DNA of 64,000 nt. Origin: an uncultured bacterium. GTDB taxonomy: Bacteria > Spirochaetota > UBA4802 > UB4802. The stretch is from the NCBI GenBank assembly GCA_937920495.1, contig CALEUQ010000005.1:12682-76681 (forward strand). Reading direction: 5' to 3'. The notes under the pieces were generated by a model. It was not told the DNA's origin. It ran no database searches and was given only the letters and a program-made list of their open reading frames with translations. Position numbers and translations under genes: made by a program. Of the stretch, positions 2-63,051 are shown one piece after another; within the stretch, counting starts at the first letter, position 1; each line of letters begins with the position of its first letter.

Positions 2-697
2 TCGGTGACTTCCGTACAGCTAGTTTCTGCTTTTGGAGCTATCGCCAACAATGGCGTGTATATGTATCCCCAGATAGTAAATCAGATTCAAAACAGCGAT
101 GGTCACACGGTCACTGCATATTTCCCAAAAACAAAAGGCAAAATATTGAACCCAACGATAGCCAGAACCTTGCTATCCATGATGCACAATGTTGTTATTG
201 AGGGAACAGGAAAAAAAGCGTACGTGGCAGGGTACGGCACAGGTGGTAAAACTGGTACAGCGCAAAAATCATTGCCACAGGGCGGCTACATACCCGATGC
301 ATATGTTGTATCATTTGTTGGGATTGCACCGGTTGATAATCCGGATATTTGTATTTTAGTAATGTATGATGAACCTGCGTATGGTGGTTCGGGTGGTGAG
401 CTAGCTGCACCTGTTTTTGCTGAAATAGCAAAACGCGTATTGCCGCTCAGAGGGTTTGGGAGTGTTGCTATCAATACGGTACACGCACAGCCTTCAAAAT
501 ATAAGTCTGTGATTAATGATGTCATGCCAGATTTTATTGGCCAGCCTGAAACAAGTGCTTTGCGACATCTAATACAGTTACAGCATGAATATCCGATACA
601 GTATATAATGAAAGGTAAGGGCAAAGTTGTTGCCCAGGATCCAAAACCGGGAGTGCCGTTAAAAAAAGTTAGTACTATTACACTGGTACTGGAGTAA
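2..697 (+). CDS. Penicillin-binding protein (FtsI/SpoVD-like transpeptidase C-terminal part plus PASTA domain); 5' truncated by window edge
   Basis: KTGTAQK transpeptidase motif; C-terminal VMPDFIG...VVAQDPKPG PASTA-like segment. Confidence 0.9.
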   Translation, partial: SVTSVQLVSAFGAIANNGVYMYPQIVNQIQNSDGHTVTAYFPKTKGKILNPTIARTLLSMMHNVVIEGTGKKAYVAGYGTGGKTGTAQKSLPQGGYIPDAYVVSFVGIAPVDNPDICILVMYDEPAYGGSGGELAAPVFAEIAKRVLPLRGFGSVAINTVHAQPSKYKSVINDVMPDFIGQPETSALRHLIQLQHEYPIQYIMKGKGKVVAQDPKPGVPLKKVSTITLVLE

Positions 698-699
698 CT

Positions 700-2556
700 G
701 TGGAAAATATTTTTAAAAAAAATATTGGGGCGATAGTTAAACGTAATAAGTCTCTGGCTGAAATAGTCAGCAATGCAGATTACACACCGTACGTTGATGT
801 GTTACAGGCAAAAAGTGGAGATCCTGTTCCAGTGGTAAAGAAAGAATCAGGAAACCTATCCGTTCACAGTAAATTTGATCCTGTGAAAGAAGCACAACGC
901 CTGATTGATGAATTTAACGTAACACAATACGATTGTATTGTTGTTTCCGGTTTTGGATTTGGATATCATATTGAGTGCCTTTTACAAAAAGTCAAAAAGG
1001 ATGCAACAATTTTAATAATGGAACAATTTCCATGGATGGTTGCGGCAGCTATCGCTCATAGGGATTTACACCATGTATTAAATGATACACGTGTTATATT
1101 GCTGGTCAACCCTGATGAAGAAGCCATAGCCATTCACATGAAGGGAAGGTCTTCATATAAAACACTGTTTATTACGCACCGAGGTTCATTTCAGATTAAC
1201 CCGGAACACTACACCAATCTGCAAAGAATTGCAAAAGCCTATATCTCTACAAAAGAGGTTAATATTGCTACACTGGCAAAATTTGAAAAATTGTGGACTT
1301 CCAACATCGCACGAAATATCAGACAGATTATTAGTTCCCCTCCTGCATCATCATTTTTTGACAGATTCAGCAATATTCCTGCTATCATTGTTAATGCCGG
1401 ACCAACATTAACACAGAGTATCCCGCATATACAAAAATGTTATGATAGTTCCATCATTATTGCGGTTGATACATCACTTAAGGTTTTAGAGCATTATGGC
1501 ATTGAACCGCATTTTTGTATTACGGTTGACCCGCAGCTCATTAACGCACGGTATTTTGAAGGTATCCATTTCAGCAAAACAATATTAATCGCTGATCCTA
1601 TGGTGCATCCATCCACATTTTTGTTTTACACAGGAAGAAAAGCAATAACAGGTGTTGCATTTGAGATGATGAAATGGATTGAGGAGATCACTGGCAGTTA
1701 TGGCACTCTTCGTTATGGGGGTTCAGTGTCAACCAATGCGTATGATTTTGCAAAACGGCTTGGGGCACATCCCATTATCATGGTGGGACAGGATTTAGCC
1801 TTCACTAATGGATTGGCACATGTAAAAGGTGCATATTTAGATGACCATATTTATTTCAGGAACTATCGCACATATACCGTAGAGATGTTTAACAGGTTTC
1901 AGCTTACTGCATTGCCAAAGATTTTAGTTAAGGGCATAAAAAGCAGATTTGTCCATACTAATCAGAAAATGATGATTTTCATTTCCTGGTTTGGCAGGTT
2001 GAATGATCAATCTTTGATCAATGCAACGTATGATGGCGCATATATTGACAATGTTGCTCATAAAAAGTTTGAGGATATTGCATATCACAAGTATGGCATT
2101 GATCTATGGCATGCAATTGATGAGATTTACAAGAGCGCTGTTCCTGAAAGTGCCACCATAACCTTACATTCAGAACACCTGTTAACGCAATTACATGAAA
2201 TGCTGCACCAAACTGAATCAATGAATACCATGCTGTCCCGGGCAATTCACTTTTCAGAGGAACTTATACACAACATACAAAACAAAAAGACACAGGCCAT
2301 ACCTTCACTGGTAAAAAAGCTGGATGATATTGACAAAAAGCTTACAGACTTTAGTGTTACCAGAAATCTGGTTGGGTTAACCATACAGCACATTATTCAT
2401 ACAGTGACCGAGGGATACGAAATTGATGAAGCTGTGACCAGTGAACAGGAAAAAGTAGCTTTAAAATCTCTGTACTTATATAAAGGATTACTGGAAGGAG
2501 TACAGTATAGCAGCCGTGTTATAAAAAATATGATAGTGTTGTTACAACAATTGTGA
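700..2556 (+). CDS. Motility-associated factor (MAF/DUF115) glycosyltransferase-family protein
   Basis: HSKFDPVKEA, GFGFGYH, AGPTL, GGSVST, GQDLAF...H motifs typical of DUF115/MAF proteins. Confidence 0.8.
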   Translation: MENIFKKNIGAIVKRNKSLAEIVSNADYTPYVDVLQAKSGDPVPVVKKESGNLSVHSKFDPVKEAQRLIDEFNVTQYDCIVVSGFGFGYHIECLLQKVKKDATILIMEQFPWMVAAAIAHRDLHHVLNDTRVILLVNPDEEAIAIHMKGRSSYKTLFITHRGSFQINPEHYTNLQRIAKAYISTKEVNIATLAKFEKLWTSNIARNIRQIISSPPASSFFDRFSNIPAIIVNAGPTLTQSIPHIQKCYDSSIIIAVDTSLKVLEHYGIEPHFCITVDPQLINARYFEGIHFSKTILIADPMVHPSTFLFYTGRKAITGVAFEMMKWIEEITGSYGTLRYGGSVSTNAYDFAKRLGAHPIIMVGQDLAFTNGLAHVKGAYLDDHIYFRNYRTYTVEMFNRFQLTALPKILVKGIKSRFVHTNQKMMIFISWFGRLNDQSLINATYDGAYIDNVAHKKFEDIAYHKYGIDLWHAIDEIYKSAVPESATITLHSEHLLTQLHEMLHQTESMNTMLSRAIHFSEELIHNIQNKKTQAIPSLVKKLDDIDKKLTDFSVTRNLVGLTIQHIIHTVTEGYEIDEAVTSEQEKVALKSLYLYKGLLEGVQYSSRVIKNMIVLLQQL

Positions 2557-5644: not shown

Positions 5645-8600
5645 ATGGCAAAAAAGATTATGAAATCAATGGATGGTAACGAAGCTGCTGCGTACATATC
5701 GTATGCGTTTACTGAGGTTGCTGCCATCTATCCCATTACACCATCTTCCCCCATGGCTGAACATGTTGACGAGTGGGCTGCTCACGGTAAAAAAAATATT
5801 TTTGGGCAGGTTGTACGCGTTGTTGAGATGCAATCTGAAGCAGGCGCTGCTGCTGCTGTTCATGGTTCATTGCAGGCAGGTTCGCTTACCACAACGTACA
5901 CTGCCTCGCAGGGGTTGCTGTTGATGATCCCCAACATGTATAAGATTGCTGCAGAATTACTCCCTGCGGTCTTTCATGTCAGCGCTCGTTCCATATCAGC
6001 TCAGGCATTATCCATATTTGGTGATCATCAGGATATCAATGCATGCAGGCAAACGGGGTTTGCTATGCTGGCAAGCGGTGGAGTGCAGGAGGTTATGGAT
6101 TTAGCCGCTGTTGCGCATCTTTCGGCAATAAAATCACGTATACCATTTTTGCATTTTTTTGATGGATTCAGAACATCTCATGAAATACAGAAGATTGAAG
6201 TTCTGGATTATGATGATCTGGCAAAGCTCATTGATTATGCAAAGTTAGAAGAATTCAGAAACAATGCATTGAATCCAGAACAGCCCGTTACACGTGGCAC
6301 AGCGCAGAATCCTGATATTTATTTCCAGGCAAGAGAAGTGAGCAACATCTTTTATCAGGCTATACCTGATATTGTAGATGAATACATGAGGCAAATAAGC
6401 AAGCTAACCGGAAGAGAATACCATCCTTTTACATATTACGGTGCACCTGATGCCGAGCACATAATAGTAGCAATGGGCTCGGTAACAGAAACAATTAAAG
6501 AAACAATTGACTACCTGCTCACACAAGGCCAAAAAGTTGGGCTTGTTACCTGTCATCTCTACAGGCCATTTTCAGCAAAATATTTTTTTAATGTGTTGCC
6601 ACGCACTGTTACACGTATTGCAGTACTTGATAGAACAAAAGAACCCGGATCCATTGGCGAACCGCTGTATCTTGATGTTCGTGCAGCATTTTATGGAACA
6701 GCCAACCAGCCTGTTATAGTTGGTGGTAGGTATGGATTGAGTTCCAAAGATACTACACCAGCACAGATTCTAGCAGTGTATAATAATCTCACGCTCAATG
6801 AACCAAAGAATGGATTTACTGTAGGTATAGTGGATGATGTAACCTTTACATCACTGCCATTGCCTGAGGAAACAAGCGTGGTTCCCGAAGGTACCTTTGA
6901 AGGTAAATTTTTTGGTGTAGGATCTGACGGGACTGTTGGTGCCAATAAGAATTCAATCAAAATTATTGGCGACAACACTGATTTATATGCTCAGGCCTAC
7001 TTTGCATATGATTCAAAGAAGTCAGGTGGTGTGACTGTATCTCATCTGCGCTTTGGGAAAAAACCAATCAGGTCTACCTATCTGGTTAACCATCCTGATT
7101 TTGTTGCCTGCCATGTTCCCGCATATCTGGATAAATATGATATTTTAAAAGGCCTGAAGAAAGGAGGCACATTCCTGCTTAACTCACTGTGGGATGAGGA
7201 GGAAACTAAAAAGAAGCTGCCGGATCACATTAAACGATATTTAGCTGAAAATAATATAAAATTTTATATTATCAACGCAACAGAAATATCCGAACGTATT
7301 GGGCTTCCTGGCAGAACCAATACCATAATGCAGGCAGCTTTCTTCAAAGTAAGCAATGTCATCCCTTATGAAATAGCTGAGAAGGAAATGAAGGATGCCA
7401 TCGAAAAAACTTATGGCAGAAAAGGTGCTGATGTTGTGAGCAAAAATATGGCTGCGGTTGATGAGGGCGCAAAAAATGTAATAGAGGTCAAAGTCCCTGA
7501 AGAATGGAAAAATATAGAGCTTCCCGGAAAACCAAAATTTGAAGAATTGCCCGAATTTATCCGTGAAGTAGTGGAACCAATGAATCGATTGGAGGGCGAT
7601 AGTTTACCGGTAAGTACCTTCTTGCCAAGACCAGATGGGACATTCCCTCCAGGTACCACTCAGTATGAAAAACGCGGTATTGCTGTCAATGTTCCTGAGT
7701 GGCAGCCGGATAACTGTATACAGTGTAATCAGTGTGCGTATGTATGCCCACACGCCGTTATCCGTCCATTCCTTCTTAATGACGAAGAAATGAAAAAAGC
7801 ACCAGCTGATATGCCGGTACTTGAAGCAAAGGGCAAAGGCCTTGAAGGGCTTAAATTCAGGATTCAGATTAGCCCACTTGATTGTACAGGTTGTGGCAAC
7901 TGTGCTGAAGAATGTCCGGCAAAAGAAAAAGCATTGATTATGAAGCCGCTTGAAAGTCAGCTTGGTCAGCAGAAATACTGGGACTTTATAGTGAAGAATG
8001 TTACGTATAAAGATAATTTGATGAATAAATACACTGTTAAAGGCAGTCAGTTCTGCCAGCCACTTTTTGAATTCTCGGGTGCATGTGCAGGCTGTGGGGA
8101 AACTCCCTACATCAAGCTTATTACTCAGCTTTTTGGTGATAGGATGCTGATTGCCAATGCAACCGGGTGTTCTTCAATTTATGGTGGTTCTGCGCCGGCA
8201 ACACCTTACTGTGTTAATGCACAGGGAAGGGGGCCTGCATGGGCAAGTTCACTTTTTGAGGATGCAGGTGAGTACGGTTATGGCATGTATCTGGGTGTTA
8301 CGCAACAACGTAACAAGCTTGCACAACTTTTAGATACAATTGCAAAAACAACAACTAACGCCCAACTTAAAGATGCAGCGCTCCAGTGGCTTGCAGGCAA
8401 GGATAATGCTGAAAAATCACGCGAAGCTACCGCTAAACTTTTACCACTTTTGAGGGGCGATAGTTCTCAAGAAGCAGCTTTAGTGTTGAAATTAGCTCGA
8501 TATCTGGAAAAGAAATCAATATGGGTGTTTGGTGGCGACGGTTTTGCCTACGATATTGGATTTGGTGGGCTTGATCACGTTATAGCTTCTGGCGAGGATA

Positions 8601-10399: not shown

Positions 10400-12853
10400 T
10401 TATGTGAGCTTGTGTGCGATAGCATCTCGGGTCTTTGCCACAATATCATCCACAGTGAGTGTATCAGGATACATTGGGGGCAGTATATGTATACTTATTG
10501 GTGTTGGTCTGGGTAGTATATTGCCACGTTTGAATGATTGGTATGCACCATTAATTGCTATCGGTACTACCGGACAATTAAGTTCTTTGCTTAAGATAGC
10601 AAATGTCTTTTTAAAGGTTCCAAGCTGTCCATCAACAGTACGAGTACCTTCAGGGAATATTATAATGTTACGTTTATTCTGAAGAATGGATGCCATTTTC
10701 TGAATGGAATCCTTAAGGTTAGTATCGATATTAACGATTATAGTATTCATTAACTTAGCCAGAGAATCTCCCCGGGATACTTTAATAAAACCAAGTTCAC
10801 GGGATAAAAAGTAGGTGTATATTAATGTTTTATTTGGTAATGATGAAATAAGAAGAACGGAATCTAAAAAACTTTGATGATTTGGGGCAAATATAACGGG
10901 GTTATCTGGAATATTTTCTTTACCGTAAAGATGTAATTTGAAATATAGTTTTGTTATTGGCTTGAGAATATATTTTGCAAATAAAATTAAAGAAAATCCA
11001 TGCTTAAAAGTATATGAGGTGTTTTTGATAATAACCTGTAGCCAGTTCTGAGCCTGTTCTTCAAATTTTAATTTATGCTGGGCAATAAAAATAGATAAAC
11101 CTTCAACGGTAGGATTATTGAGGATATCAGCATTTGATATACTAATGCCAAATGTTTCTTCAATATATGTCTGAAAAGAAAGTATGCCTAAGGAATCCAG
11201 ATTAAGATCCAGCAAAAGGTTGTGATGAGGTAATACTTTTCTACGAGTATGAATAGTTAAAAATCTCTGGATTGATTTATATTCAACCGTTTTGGGTTCT
11301 TTTATGTTTGTATGTTTTTCTTCTTTTTCTTCGTTTGCTACAAGTTGCTTTACTACATATCGCTGGAGTTTGCCCAATCTGGTTTTTGGCAATTCATCTT
11401 TGGAGATAGTTATTTTAGTAATATGCTTATAACTTGCAACGCTGGCATTATATCGGTTGATGACTTTTCGTTTTATTGTTTCCAGGATATTGACAATATT
11501 TTCCTTTGCAATCATACTGTAATCAGGATGAATGACTGCCGTAAGATTCCCCTTATCTTCAATTACTCCTATTTCCTTTATGAGCGGTGATATGCGTAAG
11601 ATGTGTTTTTCAATTTCTTCAGGGTTTATATTTTTACCACTGGGTAACACAATCATATCATCCTTTCTGCCTGTTATATAAAGGTATCCATCATTATCAA
11701 AATAACCGGTATCTTTAGTATGAAACCATCCATCAGTAATGACCTGATCTGTTGCCTTCTTGTTTTTGTAATATCCTTTCATTACATTTCTGCCTTTAAC
11801 CAGAATTTCTCCATCAACTATCTTTACTTCTGTTCCTTTAACTGGTAAACCAACAGAGCCCAACTTTACTTTTGAAAAAGGGTTAAAGGCAACCAAAGGT
11901 GCAGTTTCGGTTAATCCGTATCCTTCAACCAGATTAAACCCCAATGTTTTGAGGTCATTAGCAACTTTTGGATCTAATTTGGCGCCACCGGTAAGAAAAG
12001 CATGAATATGGCCACCAAACGCATTGTGTATCTTCTTAAAAAGTAGTTTTGAAAATGTTAGATTATTCACTGCTTTTGCTACTAAAAATAGACTATATGC
12101 AACTGGATTCTTTTTTACTGCAGCCATGATGTTTTTATGCAAAAGTTCATATAAACGAGGTATTCCTAAAAACATGGTGACACTGTGCTTCTGCAATGCA
12201 GCCAGTATTTTATCAAGCACCAGCTCTTTTACCATCACTACAGAAGCATTGAGATACAGCGGTGCGGTAACACAACCCTGTAGTGGGAAGATATGGTAAA
12301 ATGGCAACAATGCAATCATGCGGTCATCCTGCGTAAGCATCTTTAGATCAGCAATTGCCTGGATGCTGCAAAGCAGGTTATCGTAGGTGAGCATAACTCC
12401 TTTTGGTTTTCCAGTTGTGCCTGATGTGTACATAATGATTGCAGTATCATTGTAATTGATTTCAGGAAATGGCAGTGTTGTATCTGGTTTAGATTGTATT
12501 TGTTCTAATATCAATACACGGGGTTTAAATTTTATCAGTTTCAATGTCCTTTTTACTGTAGGTAGGGTATTAATTGAGCAATATATTGCTTTAGGTGTAC
12601 AGTTATTGAGAATATATGATAGCTCATGTTCTTTCAGGTTATAATCACATGGGACTGCGATTCCTTTTTTAGCCCATACACTGTAGAATGCATAAATCCA
12701 TTCAGGGCTGTTTTCGGCAAATATGAGGACTCTATCTCCTTTGTTAATTTTTAAATTTAAAGCAAACGAAGTAATATTTTGAATAAGTTCGTTATATGAA
12801 ATTTCTTTATCTGCAATGTATATTGCTATTTTGTCAGAAGGTTTTGGGAACAT
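10400..12853 (-). CDS. Multidomain acyl-CoA/ACP synthetase - ACP - PlsC acyltransferase (Aas-like)
   Basis: YTSGTTGKPKG, GYGLTE; LDSL phosphopantetheine site; NHQSFLD and FPEGTRT acyltransferase motifs. Confidence 0.9.
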   Translation of the reverse strand: MFPKPSDKIAIYIADKEISYNELIQNITSFALNLKINKGDRVLIFAENSPEWIYAFYSVWAKKGIAVPCDYNLKEHELSYILNNCTPKAIYCSINTLPTVKRTLKLIKFKPRVLILEQIQSKPDTTLPFPEINYNDTAIIMYTSGTTGKPKGVMLTYDNLLCSIQAIADLKMLTQDDRMIALLPFYHIFPLQGCVTAPLYLNASVVMVKELVLDKILAALQKHSVTMFLGIPRLYELLHKNIMAAVKKNPVAYSLFLVAKAVNNLTFSKLLFKKIHNAFGGHIHAFLTGGAKLDPKVANDLKTLGFNLVEGYGLTETAPLVAFNPFSKVKLGSVGLPVKGTEVKIVDGEILVKGRNVMKGYYKNKKATDQVITDGWFHTKDTGYFDNDGYLYITGRKDDMIVLPSGKNINPEEIEKHILRISPLIKEIGVIEDKGNLTAVIHPDYSMIAKENIVNILETIKRKVINRYNASVASYKHITKITISKDELPKTRLGKLQRYVVKQLVANEEKEEKHTNIKEPKTVEYKSIQRFLTIHTRRKVLPHHNLLLDLNLDSLGILSFQTYIEETFGISISNADILNNPTVEGLSIFIAQHKLKFEEQAQNWLQVIIKNTSYTFKHGFSLILFAKYILKPITKLYFKLHLYGKENIPDNPVIFAPNHQSFLDSVLLISSLPNKTLIYTYFLSRELGFIKVSRGDSLAKLMNTIIVNIDTNLKDSIQKMASILQNKRNIIIFPEGTRTVDGQLGTFKKTFAILSKELNCPVVPIAINGAYQSFKRGNILPRPTPISIHILPPMYPDTLTVDDIVAKTRDAIAHKLT

Positions 12854-13245: not shown

Positions 13246-14358
13246 ATGGATTATACATTTGTTCAATACAATAAGCATAAACAGTTAATTATTAAGGAAT
13301 ACAGCCGTAAAGAGTTTATTGCTGTGTGTTCCGATTTATTGTACCGGCCAAAAAAGCTATTTGTTGGATTGGGTGACTTCCTTGAAATTGGTGATTATAA
13401 CCAATTGCTGGATGCCATCTTTTATGATGAGGAAAGCTCAATTATTGAGAACTTTCTTGATGAAGCAAATCGCACACTTTCTGGAAAAGGGCAGATACCA
13501 TTTTCATTTTTAAAATTGGCAGTGTACTACCCTGATTATCTTTTAAAGGATGTACCCACTCAATGTGCATTAACTGTTGGTGCTAAAACCCGTCTTTTTC
13601 CAGGTGCCTGTCATTTTATGAATTTTATGAAACAGTATAATCCATCAATACTGACAGCAATTCCTTATGAACTGGCTATTGAAATTATAAAAAGAGTTGG
13701 GCTTGATGATAACCATCTTGTTGCAACAGAATATAAAAAGGCTACAGGCACTAAAAATATTGAATTATATGCAGGTGATATTGAACAATTTATTTCAGGC
13801 GAAAGGAAAATCATTGAAATTGAAAAATATATGGCACAAACAAATACAAAAGAAGAAGATGTCCTGTATATTGGAAGAGGTGAGTCAAGCGTTATCACGT
13901 TTTCCAAAATTAATTCTATTGCGTTTAATCCATCGGATGCAATCATCCCGTCATCTCATATTACTGTGTATGGCTCATCTCTGGAATCGCTCCTGGTATT
14001 ATTTAATGATTCAAAAGAAATAAACAAATTTTTACTATCGGATATTGGCGAACACATTTTGCCGTCACTTATTGTATTATCCGATGTAAAAGAAAAACCA
14101 AAGGAGATAATCGAGTTAGAAAAAAAACACAGACGATTACAGGCAAATATTATTGGGCAAAGAATAGAACACGGCACTGAAAGTTACACTACATTAAAGC
14201 GTGATATTGAGTTATCATTGAGTGCGTACCCTTTTAATTTTCAGGCAATAAAGGATATGGTGCGTTCACGATTGGAAAAATTCAGAATAAATCCTGAAGC
14301 TTTTGTAAATGAAATATGTGCGATAGCTCAAAAGAGATATCAAAGCTGGGGTATGTAA
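13246..14358 (+). CDS. Hypothetical protein, possibly degenerate HAD-like fold
   Basis: 370-aa ORF; LFPGA, LYIGRGESS and IAFNP resemble HAD motifs but no DxD. Confidence 0.6.
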   Translation: MDYTFVQYNKHKQLIIKEYSRKEFIAVCSDLLYRPKKLFVGLGDFLEIGDYNQLLDAIFYDEESSIIENFLDEANRTLSGKGQIPFSFLKLAVYYPDYLLKDVPTQCALTVGAKTRLFPGACHFMNFMKQYNPSILTAIPYELAIEIIKRVGLDDNHLVATEYKKATGTKNIELYAGDIEQFISGERKIIEIEKYMAQTNTKEEDVLYIGRGESSVITFSKINSIAFNPSDAIIPSSHITVYGSSLESLLVLFNDSKEINKFLLSDIGEHILPSLIVLSDVKEKPKEIIELEKKHRRLQANIIGQRIEHGTESYTTLKRDIELSLSAYPFNFQAIKDMVRSRLEKFRINPEAFVNEICAIAQKRYQSWGM

Positions 14359-14934: not shown

Positions 14935-16146
14935 GTGGGTAACTATCGCATATATGGCTTCATTATTCTTTTTATTTTATATTTGACGCAGGGTATTCCC
15001 TTTGGCTTTCAGGTTACTGCGTTACCGGTACTGTTTAGACAATCCGGAGTATCACTTACTATAATTGGATTTAGCAGTCTTCTATCATTACCCTGGATGC
15101 TTAAAATTGTGTGGGCGCCCCTTGTTGATAGATTCTGGATTGCTAAGTTTGGAAGAAGAAAATCATGGTTGGTACCTTTGCAAATGGTGATGGTTGCTTC
15201 AGCATATACTGCTACTCATATTGACATAGCTTTGAATCCAGCGTTATTTGCTGCCACTATTTTTGTCATGAACTTCTGTGCTTCTATACAGGATATTGCA
15301 GTTGATGGATTGGCAATAGATATATTAAAAGATAATGATTTAGGATATGGTAATGCCATCCAGGTTGTTGGGTACAAGATAGGGATGCTCGTAAGTGGTG
15401 GTTTTTTGGTGTGGTTAAGTTCATTCATTGGTTGGAAGGCTGTATTCCATGTAATATGCGGGGTTGTTGCAATTCCTGTATTACTTCTTATCCCTTTTAA
15501 AGAAAATAGTATAACGTACACACAGATCAAGTATATAACAATTAATGATATTTTTACACATATTACGCATGCTGTAAAACAACATGGTGTGATTATTGTA
15601 TTTCTGCTTATAGCAACATATAAAACTGGAGAAACATTCATTGATGGAATGTTTAAGCCTTATCTGGTTGATCAGGGGTTTAGTGCTCAACAAATAGGTT
15701 TATGGCAGGGAATGTATGGTATGGCTGCTTCTATTGCAGGATCAATAATTGGCGGCGTGCTTTCATCGCGCTTTGGGATCTTTAATGGATTGTGGATTTC
15801 ACTGCTGGTACGTGTAATACCATTAGGTGGTGAATGGTATTGTTCACTCATTGTTCCGTCAAGTGAATTGATTATTGCAGTTACTATCGCTGAACATTTT
15901 TTTGGTGGCATGCTGACTACTGCAATGTTTGCATTTATGATGTATACTGTTGACAGGATGATAGGGGCTACACACTATACTATGCTTGCAACTATTGAGG
16001 TACTTGGCAAATCACCTGGAATGTGGTTTTCAGGGTTACTTGCTGATACGTTTGGGTATTCGTACCTTTTTGCATTAGGAATTATTCTTTCAATTTTGCC
16101 AATAGTATTTTTAATAATGGTAAAAAAATTACGAATTATTTCTTAA
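14935..16146 (+). CDS. AmpG-like MFS transporter
   Basis: LYLTQGIPFGF, LPWMLKIVWAPLVD, GRRKSW, QDIAVDG motifs. Confidence 0.88.
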   Translation: MGNYRIYGFIILFILYLTQGIPFGFQVTALPVLFRQSGVSLTIIGFSSLLSLPWMLKIVWAPLVDRFWIAKFGRRKSWLVPLQMVMVASAYTATHIDIALNPALFAATIFVMNFCASIQDIAVDGLAIDILKDNDLGYGNAIQVVGYKIGMLVSGGFLVWLSSFIGWKAVFHVICGVVAIPVLLLIPFKENSITYTQIKYITINDIFTHITHAVKQHGVIIVFLLIATYKTGETFIDGMFKPYLVDQGFSAQQIGLWQGMYGMAASIAGSIIGGVLSSRFGIFNGLWISLLVRVIPLGGEWYCSLIVPSSELIIAVTIAEHFFGGMLTTAMFAFMMYTVDRMIGATHYTMLATIEVLGKSPGMWFSGLLADTFGYSYLFALGIILSILPIVFLIMVKKLRIIS

Positions 16147-18293: not shown

Positions 18294-18306
18294 AAACCGC
18301 TCAAGA

Positions 18307-18681: not shown

Positions 18682-18691
18682 AGTAACCTTG

Positions 18692-20058: not shown

Positions 20059-20061
20059 AAA

Positions 20062-49374: not shown

Positions 49375-52300
49375 TTACAGTAATGTATTTTTTATTTCAA
49401 GGAATTTACTGTGATTTTTTATAAATGCACTAACAATAACCGGATCAAAATATATACCAGATTTATCAGTTATAATTTTAACAGCCTTTTCATGTGGATA
49501 CGCCTGCTTGTAAGGACGTTGCGAAACAAGAGCATCATATACATCTGCAATAGCTACTATACGTGCCGATAACGGGATTTCACGCCCTTTTAATCCTTTT
49601 GGATATCCGGAGCCGTTCCATCGTTCATGGTGATAATATGCAATTTCCTTGCCTAAATTAAGGTATGATCGGCCTGTAACTTTTTGCTCAGCTTCGGCTA
49701 TGGTTTCTGCTCCAATTATTGTATGCTGCTTCATAATTTCAAATTCATACTCAGTTAACTTTCCCGGCTTAAGTAAAATATGGTCAGGAATGCCAACTTT
49801 GCCAATGTCATGAAGCAAACAGGAGTTTACAAGATCTCGTATGTAATCATGTGTAATATAATTATTATATTCGGGGTGTTGTGATAACTCAAAAGCTAAT
49901 ATTTCAACATAACGCATAATTCGCTCTAAATGCATCCCTGTTTCTTTGTTTCTGTATTCAGCTAATTTTGCAAGCGAAACGATAGTTACTAATTGCGCCT
50001 GATGAAGTCGTTGATTGAGTTCATGTGATTCTGCTTCAAGACGTTTTTTCTCGCTTATATCAATAAAGAAATAAAGACGTGCAAATGGTATATCATGGTC
50101 ATCATGAAGAAGTGATGACATGCACAATGTTGTTAGTATATCGCCGGATTTTTTCAGCATTGCAATTTCAGTATACGGTTGATATATAATTGAATATGAT
50201 TCATGGTTTGCAGATGATTTGGGATAGTTATTTTCAAAATAAATTAATTTGTTAAGTGGAGTATTTAAAATTTCAAATGGTTGATAACCTAATATTGTTG
50301 AAGCACCTTTATTCCAGCTTGTTATTATACCACTCAGGTCGGTTGTGATAATACCTATCATTTCGTTCTGTAAAATCTTTTCCTGAAATTCGGTAAGGTT
50401 TTGTATATGGGCTTCCATTTGTTTTTTTCGCTCTATATCGCGTGCCACTATCTGAATGCCTGCGGTATTATCAAGAGGGACTACACTCATGGCAAGTTCA
50501 TACCAGCTATATTTGCCATTACGGGTATATAATTGCATTTCAAAAGGCTGGGGATTGGTGCCACTTTTTAATGCATGTTCCATTATGGTGTGCAATATAT
50601 GTTTTTCGTTTTTGTCAATAAAATCAAAAATTGAAGGTTTGCGGGAATCAGGATAATCAAAGAGTTTGTAAAAGATGGAATTTCCATATACTATTTCTCC
50701 ATCAGCTGTACATAAAAGAATTATATCCTGAGTATTCTCTACCAGGTTGCGGTACTTAAGTTCTGATTTTACAAGTTCGTCCTGATTGCGCTTTCGACTG
50801 ATCTCAACTGCTGCTGCGTTAAGCAACAAGCCAATAAAGTCTTTATTCTCATTATTCGAAGACGGGTCAAGAGCTATCGCTATACTGCCTTCTATGCGTT
50901 GTTTGGAACCTATAGGATAGATTGTTATAATTTCATTCCGTAATTGTGATAGGAGCAAATTTTTTGTATTATTATCTATACCTGGAAATGTTTTTTCTAT
51001 TGCTTGCTGCAAACCAGACTTATCTTCAATTATAATTTCTTTTCCGGTTTTAATAACTTCAAAAAATGGTATATTAGAATAATTGTTCAAATCAAGTTTT
51101 ACATGTAAAATGTTATCATGTGCAACATCCTGCAATATTTTCAGAAAATCTTCAGGGAAGACATCTACAATCTGAAGGGTGTTAACATCATTGCAGAGTA
51201 GTGTCACAATACTAAATCTGGCGCCTAACGCGTGTAATGACTTGGTAATATAATGTATGCTTTCTTTTATTGTATGAGCTTGCTTTATATGATATAAAGT
51301 ATTTGCCACTAATTCTAACTTTTTTTGCTTTTCTTTCAATTCTTTGGTTTGCTTATCAACTTCTTCAGCAAGTGCTAAACTAAATTTTTCTATCTTCTGC
51401 TCGGCAACAATTCTGGTTGTGATATCTTCAAGGATATTAACTACCAAAGAAACCATGCCTGAAGGTGCATGTATGGGTGAAGCGGTATACTTAAAATAAC
51501 GTGAATCATCAGAATAAAGATTTTTCTGTTCGCGTATAATAGCAGATCCCTGAGCCATTACTCTGCTGGCTAAACAATCATGGCAGGGTTCATCTTTATG
51601 AGCTAAAATTTCGTAGCATTTTTTGTTCACAGGATGTTCTATAGAAAACCATTCTTTGAAAGTATCATTAGTTTCAATTATACTATAATCTTTATTGATA
51701 ACAAACATTGCCATTGGTATGGCATTAATAAGCGATGAATATTTTGATTCAGAGATGATAATTTTATTTTGGTACCGGTACTGCCTGAGTCCGTTAGCAA
51801 TTAACCGTGCAATAAGTTCTAACGTAGCAAATTCATTTTCATCTAGTATTGTGTGATGTTTAGGATATACAATATCAAATGAACCTATGATTTCTTTCTC
51901 AGCGATAAGTGGGAATGATACAACGCCACCAAAATCAGGAGATTGAAGAATTTGTTTTTGCAAGTCAATTGTAAGTAGCCGGGATAAATCTTTACTGGCC
52001 TGAGAGAAATCGCTTACAATTTTTTCTAAAGGGTATATTGCTTTGTTGTAAGCTGTATTGGGAATATTTATGGTATCGGATAGTATAAGATATCCTCTCA
52101 AAATTGAGAATAGTATGCTTTTAGTAAATATTTTTCTGTTAGCAATAAGCTTTTTAATATTGATGGTATTAAACTCTATATTTAATGCATTATCATTTAA
52201 CTGAGGTAAAAAATTTTTTAAAATGTTTAGTTCCGGGAATATCAATAAGTGATCACTGCCGTCGATGTTCGATAGACATGAAATATTAAATACAGGTATT

Positions 52301-54107: not shown

Positions 54108-56507
54108 ATGATTATACAGACGCTTGCTTTAAAAAATTTTAGACAATATACAGACATCAGCATCCAGTTTAAAGAAGGGCTCATTGGTATAATTGGAAAA
54201 AACGGCAGTGGCAAAAGTACGCTTTTTAATGCAATTGTGTGTGCGCTATACGGTGTGTTGCCAACCACCAGAGAGTATATTCGCTCTGCCTATGCTGATA
54301 GTAATGCCACGGTTAGAATTGAATTGGTATTTGAAATCGATAGCAATCAGTATCGTGTCATCAGGGAATATAGAGGCAAAAGTTTACAGGCACATGCTTC
54401 ATTATACAAAAATGATGCGGCGATAGCAACCGGTGCTACTGATGTAACAAACACCTTAGAAGATATAATTGGCATGCCGCAGGATGCCTTCATGCATTCA
54501 TTATTTGCAGCGCAGGGTGAACTGCGACAAATATCAGAAACCAGTGGTGCTGATCGCAGAGAGCTCATCCGAAAAATAATGGGCTTCAGTATGGTAGATG
54601 ATATCTTGCAGATGATTCGCAATGATAGGAATGACAAAAAAAGATTTATTGAAGGGCAGCAGGTAATGCTTTTAAGTGAAGATGATATAAAGGCAAAAGA
54701 ATCTGCACGTGAGGACTATAATAAGGAACTATCGCACAAAGAAAAGGCAGTACATGAATTACAGAAAAAATATGAATCACTTGCACAAAAGTTTGATGTG
54801 ACACAGAAAAAGTTTGAAGAGCAGCAGAGGCTTTATAGAAAACACAATGATCTGGTCCAGAAAAAGATGCAACAACAGGCACATCTGGATAATTGCATAA
54901 CAAATATTGACGAGGCAAAAAAACGACTAACACAGCTGGAAAATGCAAAAGCTGAACGTGAACAACTTTTGGTACAAGAACAGAAGTATAATACATTGAA
55001 GCATAAAAAAGAGCAGCTTGAGCATGCGCGCGCAATGAACATAAAAAAGCAAGCGCTACAAAAACAATATGATGAGCTTGCTGTAGAGCTACATGAAAAA
55101 GAAAAGAGTATAAAGGCAGAGCAGGATGAGCTGCAAAAAATTAATCACCTTGAAGGAATGATTACACAATATGACACCACAAAGAAAGAAAAAGAAAAAA
55201 CAATGAAGTCATTGCAGGATAAGCTGTATGCATTAAAGGAGCAGATAGGCGGCATTGAAAAGTCGGTCAAAGATCGCACAACACACATTGAGCAGATTAA
55301 AAAGCTTGGAAGGGAAGCTGAATGCCCGGTATGTTTGCGTCCTTTGCATGAAGCGTATGATGCAACGATAGCACGCCTTTTGGCCGAAATTGAAGGGTAT
55401 GAAAAAAAAGAAAAGGCGCAGTTACAGAGTGAAGTAGAAAAAGCGCAGGTAATGATAAAAGACGTCGAGAGCGCATTGAAAGATATTGAAACACAGCTCA
55501 CTAATATGCAAAAGCAGAAAGCACAACTATTAGAAAAAAAGAAAAATGTTGAAAAGTCACTTGCTGAATTAAATAAGAAAAAAGGAAATCTTAATCTGAT
55601 TCATTCACAATTACAGGAATTGGGTGCTGTTACATTTGATGATCAGGAATATGAAAGGGTGGTGAAAGAACTTGCTGTGCTTGAAGCTGTTCACACCAGG
55701 TTTATTGGATTGGATGCTCAGATACGGGAAATTCCTGATGTGTGGCAAAAAATTGAAAAGCTTGAAAAACAGCAGGAAACTCTTTCTTCTGAAATAAAGA
55801 AGATATATGAAGATATAGCTACGTTAGGATTTTCTGAACAAGTATATAATGATATTAAGAAAGAATATGATTCTGTATTGCAGCAAAAAGAAAATATAAC
55901 AAAACAATTTAATGAGGAAAAAATACTATATAATAATATTAAAAATGAAATCAGCAAGATTGTCGATGAGCTTGAAAAAGATAAACTAAACCGTAAAAAA
56001 ATTGAATCTGCAAAACAAGAATTTGAGTTATTGCAAAGACTTGAAAAAGTTATGGATGGCTTCAGGGAATCTGTACTGCAGATGGCAAAACCAGTTATTG
56101 CCAATTACGCCAGTAATCTTTTGAATCAGTTAACTAAAGGTCGCTATCAGGCAATTGTGATGGATGATAATTTTGACTTTTCAATCATAGATGATGGTAA
56201 AGAATATCCCATTAGCAGATTTTCAGGTGGTGAGATTGACTGTGCCAACTTATGCCTGCGAATTGCTATCAGCAATGCCATCAGGGATTTTAGTGGCAGC
56301 GGTGCTGTGGGATTTATGGCATTTGATGAAATCTTTGGAAGTCAGGACAATGAACGCCGTAATGCAATCATTAATGCATTGTACAGCCTTCAGGAACAAT
56401 ACCGCCAGATTTTTATCATTTCACATATTGATGATGTAAAAGAGTCTTTTCCTGCCATATTACATGTACAAACAACGCCTAATGGGTCAGTGGCAAAGTG
56501 GCTATGA
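54108..56507 (+). CDS. sbcC: SbcC/Rad50 SMC-family ATPase
   Basis: GKNGSGKS Walker A, coiled coil with CPVC zinc hook, FSGGE signature, FDE Walker B. Confidence 0.92.
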   Translation: MIIQTLALKNFRQYTDISIQFKEGLIGIIGKNGSGKSTLFNAIVCALYGVLPTTREYIRSAYADSNATVRIELVFEIDSNQYRVIREYRGKSLQAHASLYKNDAAIATGATDVTNTLEDIIGMPQDAFMHSLFAAQGELRQISETSGADRRELIRKIMGFSMVDDILQMIRNDRNDKKRFIEGQQVMLLSEDDIKAKESAREDYNKELSHKEKAVHELQKKYESLAQKFDVTQKKFEEQQRLYRKHNDLVQKKMQQQAHLDNCITNIDEAKKRLTQLENAKAEREQLLVQEQKYNTLKHKKEQLEHARAMNIKKQALQKQYDELAVELHEKEKSIKAEQDELQKINHLEGMITQYDTTKKEKEKTMKSLQDKLYALKEQIGGIEKSVKDRTTHIEQIKKLGREAECPVCLRPLHEAYDATIARLLAEIEGYEKKEKAQLQSEVEKAQVMIKDVESALKDIETQLTNMQKQKAQLLEKKKNVEKSLAELNKKKGNLNLIHSQLQELGAVTFDDQEYERVVKELAVLEAVHTRFIGLDAQIREIPDVWQKIEKLEKQQETLSSEIKKIYEDIATLGFSEQVYNDIKKEYDSVLQQKENITKQFNEEKILYNNIKNEISKIVDELEKDKLNRKKIESAKQEFELLQRLEKVMDGFRESVLQMAKPVIANYASNLLNQLTKGRYQAIVMDDNFDFSIIDDGKEYPISRFSGGEIDCANLCLRIAISNAIRDFSGSGAVGFMAFDEIFGSQDNERRNAIINALYSLQEQYRQIFIISHIDDVKESFPAILHVQTTPNGSVAKWL

Positions 56508-58058: not shown

Positions 58059-59545
58059 AATCAAAACGCTGGTCCATTTACCGGGCAATAGTCCAGCTTT
58101 TACTGTGGTCTGTGTTTATTGCAAGCATCATCTATTTGCATGATCCTGTTTCTAATGCAAGCCTGGGATTTTATCCGTCACTTTCTATCTACAGCATAAC
58201 CGTTGGATATATATCGGGACATGCAGTAAAGTATGTGTTGTTGGGCATCTCTATCTTTGTGCTGACATTTGTGCTGGGGAGGTTCTTTTGCGGATGGGTG
58301 TGCCCGCTTGGTGCAACAATTGATGCAGTTGATGGTATTATACAACACAAAGAAAAAATTAAAGCACACAGCATTACGCGTATCAAATTTTTAGTATTTT
58401 ACAGTTCACTCTTCATAGCATTCCTTGGCTTTAATGCTGCGGGGTATGTTGATCCCATCACCATAGTGTACAGATCCTATGAGCTTTTCTTATATCCATT
58501 TGTATCATACATAGGGTCGGAGCCATTGTCGTGGGTTTTACCGGGATATCAGGCACGGGACTATCCATTTTATTATTACAATTGGGCATGGATTGCAGTG
58601 GTATTCCTGGTTGTGTTAGGACTATCTGCTTTTTTACGGCGGTTTTGGTGCAGAGTACTGTGCCCGCTGGGTGCAATGTATGCGCTTGTTTCACATCTTT
58701 CATTATTCAGGCGTGTGGTTAATGAAAACAAATGTACTCATTGCGGTGCATGTGTTACAGGTTGTCGTATGGGGGCGATAGCAACCGGTGGTGTTGGCAC
58801 AAGAGAGCATGAATGTATTAAATGTTTTGATTGCCTGAAAAACTGTAATTATGAAGCTATTTCCTTTACATTTGCTCTACCTTTTAAAGTCAAAAGTGTA
58901 GAGTTCCCTGGCAAGGGAATTACTCGCAGGGATTTACTTGTTGCAGCAGGGTCAGGGATGATGGTTGCTGCAAGTAAGGTGTCACTTTTTGCGGCATCAC
59001 ATCAAAGCTATATTATACGCCCACCAGGCGCATTGCCCGAAACGCAATTCTTAGATGCTTGTATACGCTGCGGGCAGTGTATGAATGTGTGTCCCACCAA
59101 TGCGCTACATCCATGCATTACTGAAGCTTCTTTTTACGGTATGTTTACACCACGTCTTATACCGCGCATTGGGTACTGTGAATTTACCTGTACACGCTGT
59201 GGACAGGTTTGTCCCACCGGAGCAATACAAAAGCTAAAGCGTAAAGAAAAACAAAAATTTGTGATAGGTACTGCATATATATTGCATGATATATGTATAC
59301 CATGGTCTGAGCATACAAATTGTATTGTATGCGAAGAGGTGTGCCCTGTTGCCAATAAGGCAATCACACTTGAAAAAAAGATTGCCAAAAATAAACATGG
59401 CATGCAGGTTGAGGTTTTGTTGCCTGTAGTCCATGAGGACAGATGTATAGGCTGCGGAATATGTGAAAATAGATGCCCGGTGGGTGGTCAGGCAGCCATT
59501 GTGGTACGCAAGCCAAAGCTAAGCATTGGAGAATATTATGGATAA
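58055..59545 (+). CDS. Membrane polyferredoxin (NapH/MauN-like fused to NapG/MauM-like)
   Basis: GRFFCGWVCP, WCRVLCP, RPPGA and many CxxCxxCxxxCP motifs. Confidence 0.88.
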   Translation: MKSKRWSIYRAIVQLLLWSVFIASIIYLHDPVSNASLGFYPSLSIYSITVGYISGHAVKYVLLGISIFVLTFVLGRFFCGWVCPLGATIDAVDGIIQHKEKIKAHSITRIKFLVFYSSLFIAFLGFNAAGYVDPITIVYRSYELFLYPFVSYIGSEPLSWVLPGYQARDYPFYYYNWAWIAVVFLVVLGLSAFLRRFWCRVLCPLGAMYALVSHLSLFRRVVNENKCTHCGACVTGCRMGAIATGGVGTREHECIKCFDCLKNCNYEAISFTFALPFKVKSVEFPGKGITRRDLLVAAGSGMMVAASKVSLFAASHQSYIIRPPGALPETQFLDACIRCGQCMNVCPTNALHPCITEASFYGMFTPRLIPRIGYCEFTCTRCGQVCPTGAIQKLKRKEKQKFVIGTAYILHDICIPWSEHTNCIVCEEVCPVANKAITLEKKIAKNKHGMQVEVLLPVVHEDRCIGCGICENRCPVGGQAAIVVRKPKLSIGEYYG

Positions 59546-61359: not shown

Positions 61360-61422
61360 TACTACTCAGTACTTAATTCAAGAAAATCACGGTTTATAGC
61401 GATAGAATGAATAAGGGGCGTT

Positions 61423-63051
61423 ATGAAGATTGTACTTGGCTATTGTGTACAGAAAGAGCACAGTCATGATTATTATATTACATTGCTTCCTGTAGGCCTT
61501 GTTTCTATAGCTTCATATCTATCATATAAAGGATATGATGTAACACTGGCAAATTTTTCTAAAAAAAGCACCAACCAGATTCTAAAAGAAATAGAGAATA
61601 TCAAACCGCAGATAGTAGGCTTTTCATTATATACTCATAACAGAAATATTACTCTTGAAATTATACATAAAATCAAAAGAGCCTTTCCCCAAATAGTTAT
61701 TGTGCTTGGCGGCCCACACGCTACATTCCTTTCAAATGAGATAATCAAACGCTATCCATCTGTAGATTATATAGTGGAAGGTGAAGGCGAGGATGCAATG
61801 CTTGCAATAGTAAAAGCAATAAAAGCAGGCAAGCCACTCCTGGAAAAAATAGTAGTGCATAACAACCTAAATATTCACTCATTACAATATCCGGCTAAGT
61901 TTCAAGGTAAACTTTATGAAGTCAATATTAATGAGCAGTTTAAGTATATTATAACTTCGCGCGGGTGCAGTTTCAATTGCACCTTCTGTGATTCGCCGTC
62001 ATTCTGGGGAAGAAAGGTTAGATTCAGGGATGTTGATGATGTTGTTGATGAGCTGGAGTTTTTATACAAAAAATATGGAATGATTTATTTTTCCATCAGG
62101 GATGATAATTTTACATTAAAAAAAGAACGTGTACAGGAACTATCGCATAAACTCATAAAGAAAAAATTGTATATGATGTGGAACTGCCAGGCACGTGTGG
62201 ATACAGTTGATCAGGAAATGCTTGTTGCAATGAAAAAGGCTGGATTGGAGCATATACAGTACGGAGTTGAGTCAGGATCAGAGAAGGTGTTAGCGCTTTA
62301 CGATAAAAAGATAACTATAGAAAAAATTATACAAGCTGCTATGCTCACACGAAAAGTTGGTGTATATCTTTCGGTGTATCTTATGGTTGGAATGCATCAG
62401 GAAACTTACAAAGACATAAAAAAAACAAAGAAGCTTATTACCATGATGTTGCCTGGTGATTGTGTTGTCTCGCCTGTGGCGCTGTATCCTGGTACAAAGC
62501 TGTATGAAGATGAAAAGAAACGTGGTGTTGTGGACGATAGTATATGGTTTACAAAAAGAGATGCTGGAATTTATCTGCGCAATCAACCTATAGTACAGCA
62601 GTGGATGAATGATTTATTAATGCATACATATAATTTGCGAAGCAAATCCTGGTACAGGACAAAAGACTTTGCCTTGCACCGAAAGGTGGTGGGTGATTGC
62701 TGGGTTACTGATATACTTGAAGGTGATTATTATCTTGATAATGATATGTATCCTGAGGCATCTCATGTGTATGCAAAAGTGATAAATGCAATGTCTGATA
62801 ATCCCTGGGGGTATATGCGCTATGGCAAGCTTCATTTTGCCATGGGTGATTACGAAACAGCAATGGAAAGCTTTTTTGAAGTGACAAAAATTGTGCCTAA
62901 ATACTATGGGGGATGGTTAAAATATGCACAAAGTTGCCTGGCTCTTGGAATAAAAGATAAAGCACGTGCAGCTATTAGCAGAGCAATTGAATTGAATAGA
63001 TATGATGAAAGGATTCGTCATCTGTATAATTTGTTGAATAAAAAAAAATAG
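61423..63051 (+). CDS. Cobalamin-dependent radical SAM protein with C-terminal TPR
   Basis: GGPHAT, GEGE, SRGCSFNCTFC, GVESGS. Confidence 0.9.
   Translation: MKIVLGYCVQKEHSHDYYITLLPVGLVSIASYLSYKGYDVTLANFSKKSTNQILKEIENIKPQIVGFSLYTHNRNITLEIIHKIKRAFPQIVIVLGGPHATFLSNEIIKRYPSVDYIVEGEGEDAMLAIVKAIKAGKPLLEKIVVHNNLNIHSLQYPAKFQGKLYEVNINEQFKYIITSRGCSFNCTFCDSPSFWGRKVRFRDVDDVVDELEFLYKKYGMIYFSIRDDNFTLKKERVQELSHKLIKKKLYMMWNCQARVDTVDQEMLVAMKKAGLEHIQYGVESGSEKVLALYDKKITIEKIIQAAMLTRKVGVYLSVYLMVGMHQETYKDIKKTKKLITMMLPGDCVVSPVALYPGTKLYEDEKKRGVVDDSIWFTKRDAGIYLRNQPIVQQWMNDLLMHTYNLRSKSWYRTKDFALHRKVVGDCWVTDILEGDYYLDNDMYPEASHVYAKVINAMSDNPWGYMRYGKLHFAMGDYETAMESFFEVTKIVPKYYGGWLKYAQSCLALGIKDKARAAISRAIELNRYDERIRHLYNLLNKKK

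Follow-up and report, generated by a model that had tools for sequence, protein, structure and literature searches.

Introduction

Sequence-selective tags by which bacteria recognize their own DNA are firmly known from two proteobacterial families only, to judge from the passages of a 2025 preprint cited here (10.1101/2025.10.24.684340). In those passages, DNA uptake sequences (DUS) and uptake signal sequences (USS) are words of 9-10 nt that occur in hundreds to thousands of copies, form dialects, avoid the reading frame that would contain a stop and are found as inverted repeats, with about half of them located in terminators (10.1101/2025.10.24.684340). The receptor predicted for USS, according to the cited part of PMC12616744, is the type IV minor pilin ComN. 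For the cyanobacterial word HIP1, whose standing as a third case is under debate, a role in nucleoid structure was proposed by Xu et al. 2018 (PMC5861425, in the section cited here), and the cited portion of a 2026 paper suggests that HIP1 itself may be an uptake tag (PMC13756078). Here we analyze a 64,000-nt stretch of DNA from an uncultured bacterium of the Spirochaetota (G000:C5:12682-76681, that is, positions 12682-76681 of contig C5 in assembly G000; hereafter "the window") and the word CTATCGC, mostly seen as RCTATCGC, that is iterated along it. What is new is a genomic signature like that of DUS/USS or HIP1 in a new phylum, which is non-palindromic, confined to one genus and without known reading machinery.

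The word resembles each of the described systems in part. Like the DUS of the Neisseriaceae, it is non-palindromic and about 10-12 nt long, occurs in hundreds to thousands of copies on both strands, lies within genes in stop-avoiding frames, shows lineage-specific dialects on a conserved core and includes some, though few, inverted pairs that resemble terminators; unlike them, it is unrelated in sequence, belongs to the Spirochaetota and is 15% intergenic, and neither a type IV pilus nor an extra pilin in the role of ComP was found with it. The USS of the Pasteurellaceae have weaker AT-rich flanks beside a strong core, and the same arrangement is seen here over ~29 bp. As with USS, most copies are coding, protein sequence is biased in favor of the word and species have conserved sites in common, but pilus machinery was not found and spacing is near random. 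HIP1 (GCGATCGC) shares with our word its hyperabundance in and between genes, a conservation at orthologous positions beyond that of controls, the presence of an orphan methyltransferase, a debated function and the half-site GCGAT. However, neither CTATCGC nor RCTATCGC is self-complementary, the word belongs to one genus rather than a phylum, the HIP1 word is nearly absent from G000 (4 copies) and CGATCG is avoided there (53 copies), and the orphan methyltransferase is not specific to the word-carrying genus. Chi sites are short (5-8 nt), non-palindromic, lineage-specific and over-represented; our word is also short, non-palindromic and lineage-specific, and RecC is present, but strand bias is absent, the enrichment is far higher and the footprint far longer.

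The first-pass annotation of the window, made from its letters, did not recognize the motif as described, and the literature bears this out: a full-text search placed the word in no relevant paper, its sole match being an unrelated mouse microRNA paper. In the same literature we found no work that joins uptake sequences, over-representation and spirochaetes, and none that proposes DUS- or USS-like words outside the two families.

Results

A hyperabundant word with a long graded footprint

The G000 assembly (3.02 Mb, 86 contigs, 37.8% GC) contains 1550 copies of the CTATCGC core, about one per 2 kb, on both strands and mostly within genes. We counted 1119 copies of ACTATCGC and 303 of GCTATCGC. 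The 9-mer AACTATCGC occurs 730 times (383 on the plus and 347 on the minus strand), as compared with 26 occurrences of the reversed 9-mer, a 28-fold difference, and ranks second among all 9-mers of the genome. Moreover, the most frequent 10-, 11- and 12-mers are all extensions of the motif (AACTATCGCC, 397 copies; GTAACTATCGC, 265; GTAACTATCGCC, 156). The enrichment noticed in the window persists beyond it, with a density of RCTATCGC of 0.41 per kb in the window and 0.47 per kb genome-wide.

A sequence logo of the 1549 fully flanked cores showed graded information from position -11 to about +17, a span of ~29 bp. The 5' side comprises a T-rich stretch at -11 to -9, C-A-G at -6 to -4, T or G at -3 and A-A at -2 and -1, while the core is followed by C/A, C/A, A and then an A-rich tail. 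With the core itself invariant, the consensus is roughly T-T-n-n-C-A-G-K-A-A-CTATCGC-C-M-A plus the A-rich tail. Every 22-mer around the core is found at most 3 times in G000, and the copies of the motif are therefore not copies of an element.

The enrichment is independent of coding

Genes were defined by 2623 crude calls based on open reading frames (ORFs), which cover 87% of G000. Relative to these calls, 235 of the 1550 cores (15%) lie outside genes, close to the non-coding share of 13%. Intragenic cores are spread over the sense frames as 331/255/122 and over the antisense frames as 340/250/17, and the frame with 17 copies is the one in which GCGATAG holds a TAG stop. The two stop-free frames carry 586 sense and 590 antisense copies. 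Every frame is thus used save the one with the stop, in keeping with the claim of the first-pass annotation that copies inside genes fall in different frames.

The same annotation had argued for a signal at the DNA level rather than a by-product of protein sequence, a view strongly supported by three codon-aware null models. The ORFs contain 579 copies of AACTATCGC. When synonymous codons were shuffled gene by gene, the count was 33.5 +/- 5.1 (30 replicates); permuting codons gave 15.7, and a dicodon, first-order codon Markov model, which was trained on the motif-laden genome itself, gave 54.4 +/- 7.4 (10 replicates). The enrichment, then, survives a dicodon-preserving null. It is greater still for the 12-mer GTAACTATCGCC, with 115 copies in ORFs versus 1.8 (synonymous), 0.3 (permutation) and 0.5 (dicodon), an excess of >60-fold. 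The pair of rare codons CTA-TCG was found 472 times, with 43.5 expected from codon usage. The synonymous null has double the count of the codon-permutation null, indicating that the protein sequences themselves are biased in favor of the word.

The word is confined to one genus

LepA encoded in the window is 96% and 90% identical to its counterparts in two metagenome-assembled genomes labelled "Spirochaetota bacterium"; for uncultured genomes that bear the labels Spirochaetota, Spirochaetes, Leptospirales or Leptospira, identity is 74-79%. In the species collection that we used, the family consists of two genera, with 9 genomes for the genus of the window and 4 for its sister genus. Genomes other than G000 are species representatives, mostly metagenome-assembled, and absences reported here mean that a feature was not found in those searched.

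All nine genomes of the window's genus carry the word, with 1262-1753 cores (257-332 for the reversed control) and 423-950 copies of AACTATCGC. All four genomes of the sister genus are at background, with 121-190 cores (control, 127-204) and 8-14 copies of AACTATCGC. A survey of the phylum, covering 401 genomes from 153 genera, gave the same picture: only 8 genomes, all of the window's genus, exceed 75 copies, and the other 393 are at background, the highest count among them being 75, with a control of 56. The repetition in related genomes proposed by the first-pass annotation therefore yields a sharp boundary, and CTATCGC is confined to one genus of the Spirochaetota. No comparably abundant alternative word was found in a 400 kb sample of the sister-genus genome G009 or in 20 kb loci of other relatives.

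We also scanned viral contigs for ACAGTAACTATCGC and obtained at least 120 matches; among the 80 loci with flanking sequence, none had more than 2 copies of AACTATCGC. The two loci richest in cores (L201 and L139; 6 cores in ~11.5 kb) represent one virus at 99.9% identity. This virus has no extended flanks around its cores and no match to G000; the scan speaks neither for nor against phages that carry the word.

Sites arose by point mutation, are conserved and shift in dialect

Orthologous sites were compared with one congener (G008, 36% of its genome) and one sister-genus genome (~10%). In 144 kb aligned to the sister genus at 69% identity, 0 of 43 G000 cores are cores there. The 43 orthologous positions differ by substitutions, 42 of them in ungapped alignment; the word thus arose in situ, through point mutations that postdate the divergence of the two genera.

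Within the genus, the picture is one of conservation. In 1.2 Mb of G008, of which 862 kb aligned at 79.7% identity, 257 of 434 G000 cores (59%) are conserved. The same alignments conserve 23% of all 7-mers and 15% (38/257) of composition-matched 7-mers. In the 600 bp to each side of a shared site, identity is 0.78-0.80, equal to that at random positions, so the constraint lies on the word itself and not on its neighborhood; a recombination footprint around shared sites was rejected on the same figures. Orthologous sites that are not conserved mostly differ from the core by single transitions, for example CTATTGC, CTATCGT and TTATCGC.

The flanks of the core differ between species. The variant GAGCTATCGC is found 546 times in G007 and 408 times in G008, as against 103-221 times in the other seven genomes of the genus, and the same two genomes have the lowest counts of AACTATCGC (423 and 520 versus 629-950) with core counts unchanged. 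At position -1 of 231 shared ungapped sites, A in G000 is paired with G in G008 in 40 cases and the reverse holds in 6; likewise, GAA in G000 stands opposite GAG in G008 at 22 shared sites, with the reverse at 2. G008 is not the GC-richer of the two (0.366 versus 0.378). That dozens of independent orthologous sites have shifted alike implies a reader that acts in trans, is active now and differs in preference from one species to another.

Copies in the window

Scanning both strands of the window for RCTATCGC returned 26 copies, 14 on the plus and 12 on the minus strand, at exactly the 26 positions given in the first-pass annotation. Dinucleotide-preserving shuffles (n = 100) gave a mean of 1.58 (sd 1.30, max 7) and reached 26 in 0/100 cases, in line with the roughly two copies that had been estimated. 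Its further observations on the letters around the motif hold as well: all 26 copies are preceded by A or T, none of the 26 is followed by G and 7 of the 26 continue with ACA. ORFs of at least 100 aa contain 25 of the 26, the exception being the copy at 44112. Cores with C or T at -1 (YCTATCGC) number 3 in the window with 1.3 expected, and because such pyrimidine-preceded cores occur only at chance level, the purine at -1 is part of the motif. The copies are as follows.

38..45, plus strand: GCTATCGC, within ORF 2-697
730..737, minus strand: ACTATCGC, within ORF 700-2556
1048..1055, plus strand: GCTATCGC, within ORF 700-2556
1862..1869, plus strand: ACTATCGC then ACA, within ORF 700-2556
7596..7603, minus strand: CCGGTAACTATCGCC, within the pyruvate:ferredoxin oxidoreductase gene 5645-9166
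8457..8464, minus strand: ACTATCGC, within the pyruvate:ferredoxin oxidoreductase gene 5645-9166
10416..10423, minus strand: GCTATCGC then ACA, within ORF 10400-12853
14320..14327, minus strand: GCTATCGC then ACA, within ORF 13246-14358
14942..14949, plus strand: ACTATCGC, within ORF 14935-16146
15883..15890, plus strand: CAGTTACTATCGC, within ORF 14935-16146
24531..24538, plus strand: CAGGTACTATCGCC, within ORF 22647-24911
27333..27340, plus strand: GCTATCGC, within argS 27253-28917
27906..27913, plus strand: ACAGGAACTATCGCACA, within argS 27253-28917
28627..28634, minus strand: ACTATCGC, within argS 27253-28917
29918..29925, plus strand: GCTATCGC, within the CinA-family gene 29117-30334
33639..33646, plus strand: ACTATCGC then ACA, within the M24 peptidase gene 33614-34711
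36546..36553, minus strand: ACAGTTACTATCGCC, within ORF 35484-36635
36969..36976, minus strand: TCAGTTACTATCGC, within ORF 36678-37820
39394..39401, minus strand: GCTATCGC, within ORF 39036-39458
42353..42360, minus strand: GCTATCGC, within the solute symporter gene 40844-42427
44112..44119, plus strand: ACAGTAACTATCGCACA, the sole intergenic copy of the window
50873..50880, plus strand: GCTATCGC, antisense within ORF 49375-52512
54420..54427, minus strand: GCTATCGC, within the SbcC/Rad50-like gene 54108-56507
54728..54735, plus strand: ACTATCGC then ACA, within the SbcC/Rad50-like gene 54108-56507
58775..58782, minus strand: GCTATCGC, within ORF 58055-59545
62139..62146, plus strand: ACAGGAACTATCGC, within the radical SAM gene 61423-63051

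The longest motif-free run of the window, 15891-24530 (8.6 kb, GC 0.30-0.32), contains genes for a 7TM-SpoIIE phosphatase, an L-PSP endoribonuclease-family protein, an HD-domain protein, a VTT-domain protein and a TetR regulator, as well as part of an AsmA-like protein. These are ordinary genes of signalling and regulation. No mobile-element genes were found in the run, and several gaps of 8.6 kb are expected by chance across the genome.

Strand, spacing and paired copies

The first-pass annotation had called for a check of strand bias, and none was found by strand, replication or transcription. Where GC skew is positive, 273 copies lie on the plus and 252 on the minus strand of G000, and where it is negative the split is 229 to 235; skew is positive throughout the window, with its split of 14:12. 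Gaps between copies of ACTATCGC (n = 1036) have a mean of 2496, a median of 1807 and a coefficient of variation (CV) of 0.98, which is near exponential. Core counts in 10-kb bins (n = 263) vary slightly less than under a Poisson distribution (variance/mean 0.82); for HIP1, the reported spacing is periodic, at 10-90 kb along the chromosome. Motif density increases with GC. Motif-poor deserts were considered as acquired islands and this was rejected, since the number of long gaps matches the exponential and the longest is 16.5 kb.

Among motif pairs less than 60 nt apart, 20 of 27 are inverted, and several of these form hairpins followed by T-runs. Clusters of the motif were also considered as marks of an autoregulated reader gene, and rejected: the intergenic clusters are tandem repeats, with no DNA-binding gene adjoining. 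One such intergenic repeat element is built around the palindrome CGCGATTGGCCAATCGCG (G000:C39:32290-32400, C25:67270-67540 and C63:1-340); its C39 copy has four tandem 19-nt units, CGGGGAACTATCGCGCTTT, after the palindrome, with the motif in each. Contig C25 ends and contig C63 begins with related copies, so the element breaks the assembly. Two further sets of intergenic tandem repeats, ~95 nt x3 at C68:16100-16400 and ~75 nt x3 at C31:47800-48000, hold one copy of the motif each.

Other words of G000 depart from expectation as well. CGATCG occurs 53 times and GATC 5606 times, which a zero-order estimate by hand puts at about one seventh and about half of expectation, respectively; this scarcity has the look of past or present restriction avoidance. 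Another over-represented word, GGGTCAGAGC, has 185 copies, 153 of them as GGGGTCAGAGC (for example C9:129, C81:10228, C27:278 and C79:631). It usually has an A-run on its 5' side, is 43% intergenic and often lies a few hundred bases or less from contig ends. Samples of G008 and of the sister-genus genome G009 are enriched in it too, which makes it a word of the whole family with no relation to CTATCGC. It may represent one end of a repeated element, or else serve as a promoter or terminator element.

Uptake, recombination and methylation genes

ComEC was found in 8 of 9 genomes of the genus, the one miss being G007 at 95% completeness, and in all 4 of the other genera tested; DprA was found in 5 of 5 genomes tested. 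The sole pilus-like system consists of one secretin, one T2SSE-family ATPase and four pseudopilins, and corresponds to a canonical gspC-to-M cluster. Its type II secretion proteins were rejected as diverged candidates, their identity of 36-73% between the genera being unremarkable. All 13 genomes of the family have RecC, and the window encodes an SbcCD pair.

A protein of 413 aa (G000:C1:18632-19870), located through a weak HHH_3 match, is a candidate envelope DNA-binding protein. It is predicted to comprise a signal-like helix, a 14-strand outer-membrane beta-barrel and a helical tail resembling a helix-hairpin-helix (HhH). The AlphaFold2 model has a mean pLDDT of 70, from an alignment of 11 sequences. 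The best solved matches of the barrel are OmpG (E 6.6e-9, TM 0.61 on target), chain F of the type 9 translocon and FadL, and the nearest clusters in the ESM Atlas (score 0.96) are helix-hairpin-helix proteins, with HHH_3 in 99-100% of members. Every one of the nine genomes of the genus has the protein (48-71% identity), and its counterpart in the sister genus is 25-26% identical, where the median ortholog is 53%. It is encoded in a run of four genes (322, 413, 515 and 267 aa; G000:C1:17667-22271, L252:3668-8272) in which no Pfam family exceeds the cut-off, upstream of a glycosyltransferase gene and a PGA_cap gene. For the 515-aa product, the nearest Atlas clusters comprise hypothetical proteins from Spirochaetota, Bacteroidota and Cloacimonadota as well as DUF6029. 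A strong HHH_3 match was seen in a 762-aa ORF in both sister-genus genomes searched (G009:C79:13811-14005 and G011:C49:14083-14277), and no equivalent strong match was found in the three genomes of the window's genus searched; by length and domain this ORF presumably resembles Tex.

In three genomes of the genus and two of the sister genus, C5 methyltransferases (0/5), Vsr (0/5) and Dam-family enzymes above the cut-off (0/5) were not found. N6/N4 methyltransferases vary between species of the genus, and that of G000 accompanies an MjaI-like nuclease; therefore, none of them explains a genus-wide word. The gene for the G000 enzyme, which carries an SNase-like piece at its C terminus, precedes one for an MjaI-family restriction endonuclease (G000:C69:10893-12827, L131:2894-4827), and the pair forms a type II system between the genes for adenylate kinase and dnaX. 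We take the specificity of MjaI to be CTAG. An orphan gamma-class N6-adenine methyltransferase of 585 aa (N6_Mtase + Eco57I + TaqI_C; G000:C11:1080-2837, L125) lies between hypA and rsmG with no adjoining nuclease. Its orthologs (G008:C1:293493-295253 and G009:C104:6653-8440, among others) are conserved in both genera, in every genome examined, at 75% identity to G008 (median of orthologs, 83%) and 47% to G009 (median, 53%).

Discussion

The facts described above require a sequence-specific, orientation-blind, trans-acting process that makes and keeps a word of 7 to ~12 bp throughout a genus, with a preference that drifts between species. To our knowledge, the only experimentally established process with all of these properties is biased DNA uptake followed by recombination. 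For this reason we adopt, tentatively, the reading that the word is a genus-specific self-DNA tag comparable to DUS and USS. On every genomic criterion the word is like an uptake sequence, yet we do not file it within the DUS/USS family, and our confidence stays short of an even chance because a type IV pilus with a minor-pilin receptor, which is among the features that define the family, was looked for and not found.

If the word is such a tag, a sequence-specific protein would recognize it in duplex DNA whichever way round it lies, and a component of a DNA-exchange pathway would favor fragments that bear it. Point mutations that create the word would spread through recombination and those that destroy it would be replaced, so that the genome would settle at about one copy per 2 kb. 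We infer that the reader belongs to a pathway of DNA uptake or recombination. Candidate parts would be ComEC, DprA, the gsp-type secretin-pseudopilus system and the fast-evolving barrel protein with its predicted ComEA-like HhH tail.

Several observations weigh against a self-DNA tag. Selection inside the chromosome or biased repair would yield the same statistics. As for machinery, we found neither a type IV pilus nor a second ATPase of the PilB/PilT/Tad type, no ComEA above the cut-off and no VirB4 (0/13 genomes of the family). ComEC is represented here by the "Competence" domain alone, ComEC and DprA also occur in word-free genera and in many non-competent bacteria, and the gspC-to-M cluster is syntenic gene for gene in the motif-free sister genus, at 36-73% protein identity. 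The barrel-HhH protein is likewise present in the sister genus, and its HhH assignment is weak (Pfam HHH_3 at 19 bits, with a cut-off of 27). Copies are 15% intergenic with few terminator-like pairs, versus about half in terminators for DUS/USS, and their spacing is near exponential (CV 0.98). Depletion of the motif in acquired islands, which the first-pass annotation had put forward as a check, was not seen in variable DNA: G008 blocks that do not align to G000 have 0.444 copies per kb, as compared with 0.480 per kb in aligned blocks. Finally, the genus is known only as metagenome-assembled genomes.

The first-pass annotation had named three functions, namely self-DNA uptake, iteration driven by methyltransferase or repair, and binding of a nucleoid or recombination protein. 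Uptake agrees with all statistical and evolutionary features tested and disagrees on canonical machinery. As to the correlation that it suggested with competence genes or an orphan methyltransferase, ComEC, DprA and the orphan enzyme are all present in the genus, and none of them is specific to carriers of the word.

One specific form of self-DNA recognition, which we hold to be unlikely, would have evolved independently and without type IV pili, the word being read by the tip of a pseudopilus like that of type II secretion or by the HhH-tailed outer-membrane barrel, possibly on DNA marked by the orphan adenine methyltransferase. If true, sequence-selective DNA uptake would have a third origin, distinct in mechanism and the first to lie outside the Proteobacteria, and the flank dialect would be a snapshot of reader specificity drifting between species.

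The alternative that survives best, although we consider it somewhat unlikely, is a chromosomal signal like HIP1, unconnected with DNA import. Selection acting through a chromosomal protein, or through a mark set by the orphan adenine methyltransferase, would keep the word at roughly even intervals for nucleoid organisation, segregation or methylation-dependent self-marking. This would account for 59% of sites being conserved, against 15-23% in controls, while flanks drift, which is the kind of result from which Xu et al. 2018 inferred selection on HIP1 in the section cited here (PMC5861425). The conserved orphan methyltransferase parallels those linked to HIP1 in the cited part of PMC4390886, counts per 10 kb are slightly under-dispersed (0.82), and canonical uptake machinery was not found. 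However, our word is non-palindromic, the orphan methyltransferase is found equally in the motif-free sister genus with ordinary divergence, and we found no genus-specific reader. This alternative partly merges with that of a self-DNA tag, because HIP1 itself is now argued, in the cited portion of PMC13756078, to take part in transformation.

A neutral origin seems decidedly improbable. Sequence-biased repair or gene conversion, in the manner of very-short-patch repair, could turn near-matches into the word with no function attached. Being trans-acting, it would generate copies in every frame and on either strand through point substitution, and by restoring decayed copies it would mimic conservation; its preference could also shift between species. 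That non-conserved orthologous sites mostly differ by single transitions also fits. Yet the known enzymes (C5 methyltransferase, Vsr and Dam) were not found in any of the five genomes searched, and the option of a methyltransferase- or repair-driven sequence thus finds no support in its classical form; an orphan N6-adenine methyltransferase is present, but in both genera. Known repair biases alter word frequencies by small factors, and a 28-fold excess of the 9-mer over its reverse, or >60-fold for the 12-mer, would need unprecedented strength. In addition, the graded footprint of ~29 bp looks like a binding site and not like a mismatch context.

We regard as highly improbable a signal of the Chi type, which RecBCD or another nuclease would read so as to halt the degradation of the cell's own DNA. 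RecC in all 13 genomes of the family and the SbcCD pair in the window would be compatible with it. The option fits poorly because strand bias is absent, with no orientation bias relative to GC skew (273:252 and 229:235, and 14:12 in the window); moreover, the sister genus, with the same RecC, has no comparable word in the 400 kb sample, and footprint and enrichment go well beyond those of known Chi sites. Artefact, whether from a recurrent peptide, a codon-pair preference, copies of a small mobile element or faulty assembly or binning, has next to no probability and was excluded, for although a few copies do lie in local tandem repeats (C39:32333-32397, C68:16100-16400 and C31:47800-48000), the word survived three codon-aware nulls, uses all permissible frames in both orientations, has no surrounding 22-mer more than 3 times, aligns without insertions at 42 of 43 sister-genus positions and recurs in nine species genomes.

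A self-DNA tag remains the reading that we tentatively favor. As a practical matter, the word marks DNA of this genus in metagenomes and might be built into constructs should the genus be brought into culture, and scans of uncultured genomes for hyperabundant words can uncover such systems. The sharp boundary with the sister genus and the ongoing shift in dialect make a compact comparative system in which to find the reader. One meaning of these results would be that selective DNA exchange is commoner, and mechanistically more varied, than has been thought; the other would be that a different process yields the same hallmarks, which would weaken the inference from abundance to uptake everywhere.

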